A stretch of 62,597 nt of DNA from a virus. Lineage: Duplodnaviria; Caudoviricetes. Location: IMG/VR virus record IMGVR_UViG_3300044636_000600, positions 1 to 62,597 of that record; one strand, given 5' to 3'. The notes beneath the pieces were generated by a model. The model did not search any database. It was not told where the DNA came from and was given only the letters and a program-made list of their open reading frames with translations. The translations under genes and the position numbers were made by a program. This document shows positions 35,985 to 36,158 of the stretch, piece by piece; position 1 is the stretch's first letter, and every line of letters starts with the position of its first letter.

Positions 35985-36158
35985 TGCGAAAAGGTCAGGG
36001 AGTAGGTTTCCCTACTCCCCCAAAACAGGATTTAGCCGCTACACAGTAGCTATTGCCCCCGACCTTTCGGCTCCCTGCGTATCGTCCGCCGCAAATGCAA
36101 GCACCAGGGCAGATCGTCCGCGCAAGGCACGGGGCGCGCAGTGTGTGACTACTACGCG
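35985..36158 (-). ncRNA. Putative tracrRNA with split anti-repeats
   Basis: GUCACAC (36149-36143) complements repeat 3' end; CUAAAUCCUGUUUUG (36035-36021) complements repeat middle; 9-bp GAAA-tetraloop hairpin 35998-36019; ends approximate. Confidence 0.75.

Follow-up and report, generated by a model that had tools for sequence, protein, structure and literature searches.

A candidate split anti-repeat tracrRNA in a phage-borne CRISPR cassette with a miniature, apparently nuclease-dead Cas12-like effector and a ParB-like partner gene

The Cas12f and Cas12e families of type V effectors, from systems built on short palindromic repeats that are clustered and regularly interspaced (CRISPR), use trans-activating CRISPR RNAs (tracrRNAs). 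A candidate for an RNA of this kind is considered here on the minus strand of the Caudoviricetes record IMGVR_UViG_3300044636_000600, whose 62,597 nucleotides (nt) are referred to below as the window; it carries two separate stretches complementary to the repeat (anti-repeats) and lies upstream of a CRISPR array and of the gene for a Cas12-like effector of 504 amino acids (aa). In the account of type V guides given in PMC11246509, V-B, V-F and V-G guides have two repeat:anti-repeat duplexes, a long one and, in a pseudoknot, a short one of 5-7 base pairs (bp), and V-E and V-K guides form one long duplex and a triple helix. With its 15 bp and 7 bp, the arrangement in the window resembles that of V-F (Cas12f1), V-B and V-G, and the RNA adds a new member to a known tracrRNA design, that of a long plus a short anti-repeat. 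The original prediction, made from the letters of the window, had compared the two duplexes with those of Cas12f and Cas12k tracrRNAs; the Cas12f half of this comparison holds, and the Cas12k half does so only in part, given the single long duplex and triple helix of V-K. Unlike V-F, however, the candidate presents a GNRA-capped hairpin past the long anti-repeat, apparently belongs to a single transcription unit, and is borne by a phage, in a cassette in which no cas1, cas2 or cas4 was found.

CasX (Cas12e) is an active, tracrRNA-dependent nuclease of about 900-1000 aa, and Cas12k is a naturally RuvC-inactive Cas12 that needs a tracrRNA. Cas12m and Cas12c retain a RuvC pocket that processes the CRISPR RNA (crRNA), and Cas12m is not known to use a tracrRNA. 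The effector of the window is like Cas12f in being miniature and in having Cas12f structures as its best structural matches, but it falls far below the curated cut-offs and lacks the RuvC triad. Cas12e gave the best match of the effector family profile in PDB, although the window protein has only 504 aa and the CasX guide is described with a long duplex and a triple helix (PMC11246509). Cas12m and Cas12c have been described as array-linked systems that protect by binding or silencing, without cleavage of double-stranded DNA (PMC10442227, PMC11013384; bioRxiv 10.1101/2021.12.06.471469); both are of other lineages, with Cas12m2 at Foldseek rank 37, and in the window effector all three triad positions are replaced. 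Cas12k structures matched the window effector at Foldseek ranks 18-35. However, V-K arrays are described as very short (PMC10691335) and the V-K guide as using a triple helix (PMC11246509), whereas the window has 12 repeats and no Tn7-like genes in the cassette.

One study described the dCas12f-sigmaE proteins of RNA-guided transcription as nuclease-dead Cas12f relatives with single guides, for which it reports that no tracrRNA-like species was found, and placed a distinct dCas12f cluster beside CRISPR arrays that have putative guide RNAs upstream (PMC13472631). The window cassette differs from dCas12f-sigmaE in carrying no sigma factor, and the structures of those proteins reached Foldseek ranks 31-32 and were absent from the profile search. 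Cas12p ('Cas12 hacker') is described as a phage-encoded protein of 500-700 aa that works with a tracrRNA and a crRNA, and as an active nuclease stimulated by host thioredoxin (bioRxiv 10.1101/2025.01.20.633832); the window effector differs from it in the missing triad, and the Cas12p structure 9jfs ranked only 39th in Foldseek. Replacement of the triad across a whole clade is shared with Cas12k, dCas12f-sigmaE and TldR, but the partner that defines each of these (Tn7 genes, a sigma-E factor, a fixed regulatory guide) is absent from the cassette, whose genes are limited to a zinc-finger open reading frame (ORF), the effector and the ParB-like gene, and which carries 11 strain-variable spacers. 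Catalytically altered Cas12 branches, among them Cas12f and several V-U groups, have already been recorded (PMC10691335); these branches, or the CRISPR-linked dCas12f cluster, may cover the window clade. Judged from its sequences, the effector clade is apparently uncharacterised and nuclease-dead, and the more interesting point would be that the RNA apparently serves a nuclease-dead, ParB-linked and mobile phage cassette.

The candidate RNA follows directly on a promoter close to the sigma-70 consensus and lies, as had been proposed, upstream of the array and co-oriented with it, about 200 nt before the first repeat and on the strand of both array and effector (Table 1). Its short anti-repeat, GUCACAC, located 9 nt past the predicted start, complements the final 7 nt of the 37-nt repeat exactly, and its long anti-repeat, CUAAAUCCUGUUUUG, forms 15 pairs with the middle of the repeat, one of them G-U. 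The two are 107 nt apart, in agreement with the roughly 110 nt first estimated, so that the short anti-repeat stands near the 5′ end of the RNA and the long one far downstream; on the repeat, the 15-bp and 7-bp duplexes leave a 4-nt linker between them, and the latter comes to lie beside the spacer. The GGGAGUAGG-GAAA-CCUACUCCC hairpin, the GCUAC/GUAGC hairpin and the duplicated GCGGACGAU were all found where the original prediction had placed them. Moreover, in a co-folding check of the kind proposed with it, the dimer minimum-free-energy fold of the 174-nt RNA and the repeat formed both duplexes, whether the canonical or the variant repeat was used. By itself the repeat is unstructured, its fold reaching -2.6 kcal/mol, a value equalled or bettered by 165 of 200 shuffles.

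The longer complementarity stood out in the window. A search with the 15-mer, allowing up to 2 mismatches, returned 11 matches, namely ten array repeats and 36035-36021, where shuffles led us to expect 0.08, and in an ungapped comparison over both strands of the 62.6 kb no other Watson-Crick/G-U complement to the repeat outside the array equalled the 15-nt run in length, the nearest being three runs of 13 nt. GTCACAC was found 14 times in the window, three of them outside the array, for 8.5 expected in the whole window; by chance, roughly 0.01 copies would be expected in a 170-nt stretch of one strand, and a copy placed 9 nt past the predicted start has a chance of about the same size. Both complementarities are thus unlikely to have arisen by chance. 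No Rfam family matched between 30000 and 40000 at E up to 1, and no ORF of at least 80 aa with a start codon overlapped the candidate RNA. Elsewhere in the window, a perfect 13-nt complement to repeat nt 2-14 was noticed at 11286-11298 (plus strand) inside a head-protein ORF, as was a 12-nt copy of the core of the long anti-repeat at 61234-61245 (plus strand) inside a primase-like ORF; both are probably due to chance.

Table 1. Features of the cassette and its flanks, in positions of the window and in the order in which they are met on the minus strand
Feature	Position	Strand	Remarks
Basic zinc-finger ORF, 69 aa	36441-36232	-	upstream edge of the shared block
Sigma-70 promoter, extended -10	36193-36165	-	TTGACA, 17-nt spacer, TG-n-TATGAT; 11/12 matches; predicted start ~36158
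Candidate tracrRNA, ~170 nt	36158-35989	-	5′ end from the promoter prediction; 3′ end uncertain
Short anti-repeat GUCACAC	36149-36143	-	RNA nt 10-16; complement of repeat nt 31-37, which lie immediately 5′ of the spacer
Central predicted stem-loop domain of the scaffold	36127-36073	-	from minimum-free-energy folds; holds both GCGGACGAU copies
Duplicated GCGGACGAU	36121-36113 and 36089-36081	-	
Long-range stem AAAGGUCG/UGACCUUU	36067-36060 with 35997-35990	-	
Small hairpin GCUAC-UGU-GUAGC	36050-36038	-	GCUAC 36050-36046, GUAGC 36042-36038
Long anti-repeat CUAAAUCCUGUUUUG	36035-36021	-	RNA nt 124-138; pairs with repeat nt 12-26
GNRA-capped hairpin, 9-10 bp	36020-35997	-	directly after the long anti-repeat; GGGAGUAGG 36019-36011, GAAA loop 36010-36007, CCUACUCCC 36006-35998; then UGACCUUUU
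Leader, tracr segment to first repeat	35988-35822	-	neither promoter nor terminator predicted inside
CRISPR array	35821-34977	-	12 repeats of 37 nt, 11 spacers of 35-37 nt
Miniature Cas12f/Cas12e-like effector	34962-33448	-	504 aa from ATG, or 506 aa from GTG at 34968
ParB/Srx-like protein, 377 aa	33419-32286	-	ORF overlapping or adjacent to the effector; helical, coiled-coil C-terminal part
Intrinsic terminator	32274-32231	-	18-bp stem then T tract; closes the cassette

The candidate RNA was also more conserved than its surroundings. In L001, a 37.5-kb viral contig whose effector is 98% identical to that of the window, the RNA (36158-35985) showed no difference in 174 nt, whereas the leader differed at 11 of 163 positions and the upstream zinc-finger ORF at 26 of 224 (Fisher p = 2.8e-4 for RNA against leader and 2.8e-7 for RNA against ORF); between that ORF and the RNA start, one difference was seen in 73 nt. 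A second, more distant variant was obtained from two wastewater runs, as a contig of 232 nt in X17 (35976-36207) and one of 355 nt in X19 (35874-36209). Both were unchanged over the 149-nt core 36158-36010, and in X19 this core (0/149) contrasted with the leader, for which eight differences were listed in 35874-35984 (8/111; p = 9.5e-4). The four changes of this variant within the RNA all fell in 36009-35985; that at 36009 turned the GAAA loop into GCAA, by which the GNRA form was retained, and that at 35989 turned a G-U pair into G-C. In the promoter, the sole base that varied among relatives was 36171, the free 'n' of TGn, where the window has A, L001 has G, and X17 and X19 have T.

The effector was recognised by several profiles, although always below the curated thresholds. 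It matched the NCBIfam models TnpB (3.4e-11) and Cas12f2 (1.3e-7) and the PADLOC Cas12f model (4e-7), with scores of 30.7 bits against a cut-off of 450 for Cas12f2, 43.1 against 100 for guided_TnpB and 16 against 26.3 for Pfam TNB. A phmmer search of the effector against PDB gave no match. Five relatives at 53-67% identity were found, and the representative library held 253 matches at E up to 1e-3 and 29 at 1e-30; a 30-sequence profile of the family, searched against PDB, reached Cas12e at 4.5e-23 and Cas12f at 7e-21. The AlphaFold2 model had a predicted local distance difference test (pLDDT) score of 85, and its top Foldseek matches were OsCas12f and AsCas12f (5e-14). From these profiles and this model, the protein is clearly predicted to be a TnpB/Cas12-like miniature effector, with a RuvC fold and a zinc-finger (TNB) insertion, that is most similar to Cas12f.

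The family motifs GIDRG, IVLEDL and HADxxAxxNIARR align with the CasX catalytic positions that are mutated to alanine in dCasX entries, and in the window effector T315, M399 and G473 occupy the columns of the RuvC Asp, Glu and Asp. Among 30 aligned proteins, the Asp-Glu-Asp triad was intact in 14, lacked one residue in two and lacked at least two in the remaining 14. In the maximum-likelihood tree, 12 degenerate proteins, each without at least two triad residues, formed one clade (support 96/92), the sister group and outgroups being intact; the five-member subclade of the window effector had a support of 100/100. The loss of double-stranded DNA cleavage by the effector is rated as probable.

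Taken together, position, strand, promoter, complementarity, conservation, unstructured repeat and effector fold support the proposal that 36158 to about 35990 on the minus strand encodes a tracrRNA with a split anti-repeat, and we consider that this is probably the tracrRNA of a miniature type V CRISPR cassette borne by the phage, or equally the tracr segment of a longer primary transcript. In the mechanism that we propose, the RNA would start from the extended -10 promoter; its nt 10-16 would pair with the last 7 nt of every repeat, beside the spacer, and its nt 124-138 with repeat nt 12-26, the structured scaffold of about 107 nt separating the two anti-repeats and the GNRA-capped hairpin following the second. 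The long and short duplexes would give the unstructured repeat the shape that the 504-aa effector binds, and would also mark the site at which the pre-crRNA is cut, probably by a host RNase, so that the hybrid could be trimmed and loaded on the mini-Cas12. The loaded complex would then bind DNA flanked by a protospacer-adjacent motif, possibly together with the ParB-like protein, and its targets would be competing mobile elements or host genes. Since the RuvC Asp, Glu and Asp have given way to T, M and G, the complex would most likely bind without cutting, and RNA-guided DNA binding or silencing is its likely function as far as the sequence tells. It had also been claimed that the layout gives an immediate single guide RNA design; the layout can indeed be read, but such a guide would program a DNA binder and probably not a cutter.

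Several observations weigh against the tracrRNA reading or against parts of it. The RNAduplex energy of the 174-nt stretch with the repeat (-26.2) was no outlier among 3068 stretches compared (mean -20.6, sd 3.0), the best unrelated, GC-rich ones reaching -33.6, and the fold of the RNA alone had a z of only -2.2. When the whole 174 nt were counted, with four differences in X19, the contrast with the leader (8/111) weakened to p = 0.066. Two of these changes, at 35996 and 35995, broke two pairs of the long-range AAAGGUCG/UGACCUUU stem and were uncompensated, so that this stem, present in the window as it had been placed, is doubtful as drawn beyond about six pairs. The other proposed helices were invariant in L001 and X17/X19, the only loci spanning the region; no covariation was therefore seen in these loci, and the helices say nothing for or against themselves. 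A clear anti-repeat was not seen in the relative L007, the contig of which stops within its array. The repeats of the window are heterogeneous, with at least five variants that differ at nt 7, 10, 13, 16-17, 27 and 37, and the variants inside the long duplex, at nt 13 (G/A) and nt 16-17 (AC/GU), stay paired with the opposite U, U and G; however, the three pair-preserving variants are transitions opposite U or G, and U or G occupies 9 of the 15 anti-repeat positions, so pairing would be kept by chance about 0.2 of the time and these variants are only mildly supportive. As regards expression, the ends of the RNA are covered by assembled contigs only, which give neither a 5′ nor a 3′ end. The X17 contig comes from an RNA-labelled run, in which DNA carry-over is possible, and is weak evidence; it extends 49 nt upstream of the predicted start; the freshwater RNA-labelled run X16 gave no contig over the candidate RNA, its single contig, identical and 201 nt long, covering 36244-36444 in the zinc-finger ORF only, and the X19 run is probably DNA. 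Transcription of the candidate RNA is neither shown nor excluded by these contigs.

The absence of a predicted terminator between the RNA and the array is a further point of this kind, and the RNA may perhaps be no separate molecule. The minus-strand order runs from the zinc-finger ORF through promoter, candidate RNA, leader, the 12 repeats, the effector ORF and the ParB-like ORF to the terminator, in a self-contained cassette; only two promoter-like sites, one per strand, were predicted in 33300-36700, and the minus strand of 36700-32231 holds a single strong terminator (32274-32231) besides a weak 7-bp candidate inside the ParB-like gene. With one promoter and one terminator, the tracr segment, array and genes apparently form one transcription unit, at least by these predictions. 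The GNRA hairpin with UGACCUUUU falls short of the terminator-scan criteria; the 3′ end of the RNA may be the UUUU at 35992-35989, or transcription may read through into the array, and since no terminator is predicted after it the RNA is possibly the 5′ part of one long, later processed transcript. These same facts, with the sole strong terminator beyond the ParB-like gene, no second promoter in the leader and an array that abuts the effector start codon (the ORF begins 14 nt past the last repeat), would equally suit a stretch that is only the 5′ leader of one long transcript, folding back in cis, for instance on the first repeat, and controlling read-through or the stability of the messenger RNA. 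Such a role is unlikely, because both anti-repeats match segments that never vary among the 12 repeats (nt 18-26 and 28-36) and not the first copy alone, because known type V guide RNAs have the same two-duplex geometry, and because co-transcription is compatible with the processing of a tracrRNA. Less probable still is a fossil origin, in which the complementarity would be a piece of an inverted repeat that a rearrangement of the array left behind and that now has no function. The arrays of the clade are in flux, as seen in the lack of common spacers among the window, L001 and L002, in the heterogeneous repeats and in an IS607-type insertion in L002; however, both the leader and the neighbouring ORF have changed more than the stretch, whose core shows no difference in the second variant, a near-consensus promoter stands directly in front of it, and a separate complement to the 3′ end of the repeat lies at its predicted 5′ end.

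A different doubt concerns the effector and leaves the tracrRNA genuine: the protein could still be a nuclease whose RuvC site is shifted in register or rearranged, or cutting could fall to the ParB/Srx-like partner. D316 is found in 5/5 members of the subclade and an acidic residue at position 400 in 4/5, each one residue past the lost Asp and Glu, and this adjacency makes a shifted active site possible and weighs against the binding-only reading; P0004 and P0005 also keep the RuvC-III Asp, spacers turn over as in an immune system, and rearranged catalytic sites have been described for TnpB and Cas12 (PMC10691335). Against this, the RuvC-III Asp is G in 3/5 subclade members, no clade-specific acidic replacement was seen, and the substitutions at the three columns differ within the 12-protein clade, as expected after loss of constraint; binding-only immunity, moreover, has precedents in the descriptions of Cas12c (bioRxiv 10.1101/2021.12.06.471469) and Cas12m (PMC10442227, PMC11013384). 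An active nuclease is therefore regarded as doubtful, and a tracrRNA-dependent effector that binds without cutting is the reading followed here.

TasA, an RNA-guided protein of the TIGR systems, is not known to carry a nuclease domain. These systems are described in phages and parasitic bacteria, where TasA, contrasted with the nuclease-bearing TasR, shares an operon with a ParB-like gene whose product, TasParB, is predicted to dimerise through its C-terminus (PMC12045711). The partner gene of the window effector encodes a protein with a ParB/Srx-like N-terminal domain (NCBIfam parB_part 0.0078; PHROG ParB-like 0.002), whose model (pLDDT 68) gave ParB, Noc and KorB chains as top Foldseek matches, the best E being 1.8e-3; searches of its family against Pfam and, by phmmer, against PDB returned nothing. 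Its C-terminal part is long and helical, in which it resembles TasParB, although TasParB is likened to it by description and not by sequence, and the RNA-guided protein and guide array of TIGR-TasA are unrelated to Cas12 and CRISPR. A ParB-like homologue follows the effector in L001, in L002 and in the 57%-identical L003. Two more were found on contigs of 5390 and 2789 nt, sizes equal to those of the contigs carrying effectors P0002 and P0003, with which they would share contigs if equal sizes, and not sequence, may be taken as a guide. No paper describing a Cas12-ParB pairing turned up in the literature searches, which is no proof of absence.

By analogy with TasA, whose operon includes a ParB-like gene, it is plausible that an RNA-guided binder and a ParB-type protein are functionally linked. 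We tentatively propose, as a possibility that falls well short of being the expected one, that the cassette is a phage weapon or host-control device in which the nuclease-dead mini-Cas12, programmed by tracrRNA and crRNA, would act as a sequence-specific loader of the ParB-like partner; once loaded, the latter would cut the targeted DNA, silence it or spread along it, as a CRISPR counterpart of TasA-TasParB. If true, this would be a natural case of RNA-guided ParB loading, and the cassette would make it testable whether RNA-guided binders recruit ParB-type proteins, a pairing seen independently in TIGR-TasA. Even apart from the loader, the binding-only reading, if true, would add a phage-borne, tracrRNA-dependent member to the few natural binding-only CRISPR systems and would provide a very small natural dCas scaffold with a guide architecture readable from sequence. 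The wider interest lies in an apparently phage-exchanged cassette of about 4.2 kb that brings together a 504-aa Cas12, a fast-changing spacer array and a ParB-like gene always placed after the effector.

The array repeat begins GUUGCA, and the last of the 12 copies is degenerate. No spacer target was matched within the phage or the fetched loci, nor in GenBank phages, and the first 24 nt of spacer 1 were absent from IMG/VR. Spacers 1 (35784-35748) and 2 (35710-35674) start with GCUAC, which extends the pairing with the 5′ end of the RNA, CGCGUAGUAG, past the 7-nt anti-repeat; this start is absent from the other nine spacers and may be due to chance. In L002, a metagenome contig with a 97% relative, an IS607-type element occupies 219-2090, between the last CRISPR repeat and the effector start, and consists of a serine resolvase at 290-871 (Pfam Resolvase, 5e-18) and a TnpB at 858-2057 (OrfB_IS605, 1.7e-21), with a short sequence past the last repeat recurring at both insertion ends. 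Arrays of a 28-nt repeat with a strong internal hairpin were seen after a 29%-identical member of the effector family (L009:5473-5810 and L008:1500-1837), and tracrRNA-independent guide designs may occur in the wider family.

The similarity between the window and L001 starts at 36455 and ends at 32296, at the edges of the cassette, and a cassette-only block was likewise found in L002; within the 5-7 kb fetched for each of the two contigs, similarity covers the zinc-finger ORF through the end of the ParB-like gene and stops on either side, by the terminator at the downstream edge. Since similarity is confined to this block, the cassette appears to have been exchanged between phages. The zinc-finger ORF at its upstream edge (phrog_14788, 4e-9) was rejected as a component of the system, its family being far wider than that of the effector (41 clusters vs 6), and is probably a mere neighbour. 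No locus with a diverged repeat plus the upstream region was found in viral, metagenome or genome contigs: the contig of L002 begins within its array, and that of L003, whose repeat differs at nt 12, 17, 21 and 24, extends just 285 nt upstream. A profile search for the close clade returned L001 alone from viral contigs, L002 and L003 from metagenome contigs and nothing from genome contigs, a further alignment gave L007, L008 and L009, a degenerate repeat pattern likewise gave only the L001 contig among viral contigs and none among genome contigs, and GenBank phages yielded no more than a 24.6% match. A search with a back-translated C-terminal motif gave L015, which is cut by the contig end, and L011, where a decayed locus at 1986-2365 retains the last ~45 aa of a family effector beside two repeats beginning GGUUGCAGU.

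The window is a virus record of 96% completeness, from a lake-water phage. Genes for terminase, portal, head, tail fibre and replication are present in it, and a scan of 29 ORFs revealed no integrase. At least half of the sampled words of 35840-36460 were present in 15 lake or freshwater DNA runs. Two further ParB-like N-terminal domains were noticed in the phage, at 1326-2402 and 50978-52681 on the plus strand; the second is joined to a DNA methyltransferase region, and the first also matches a methyltransferase family.

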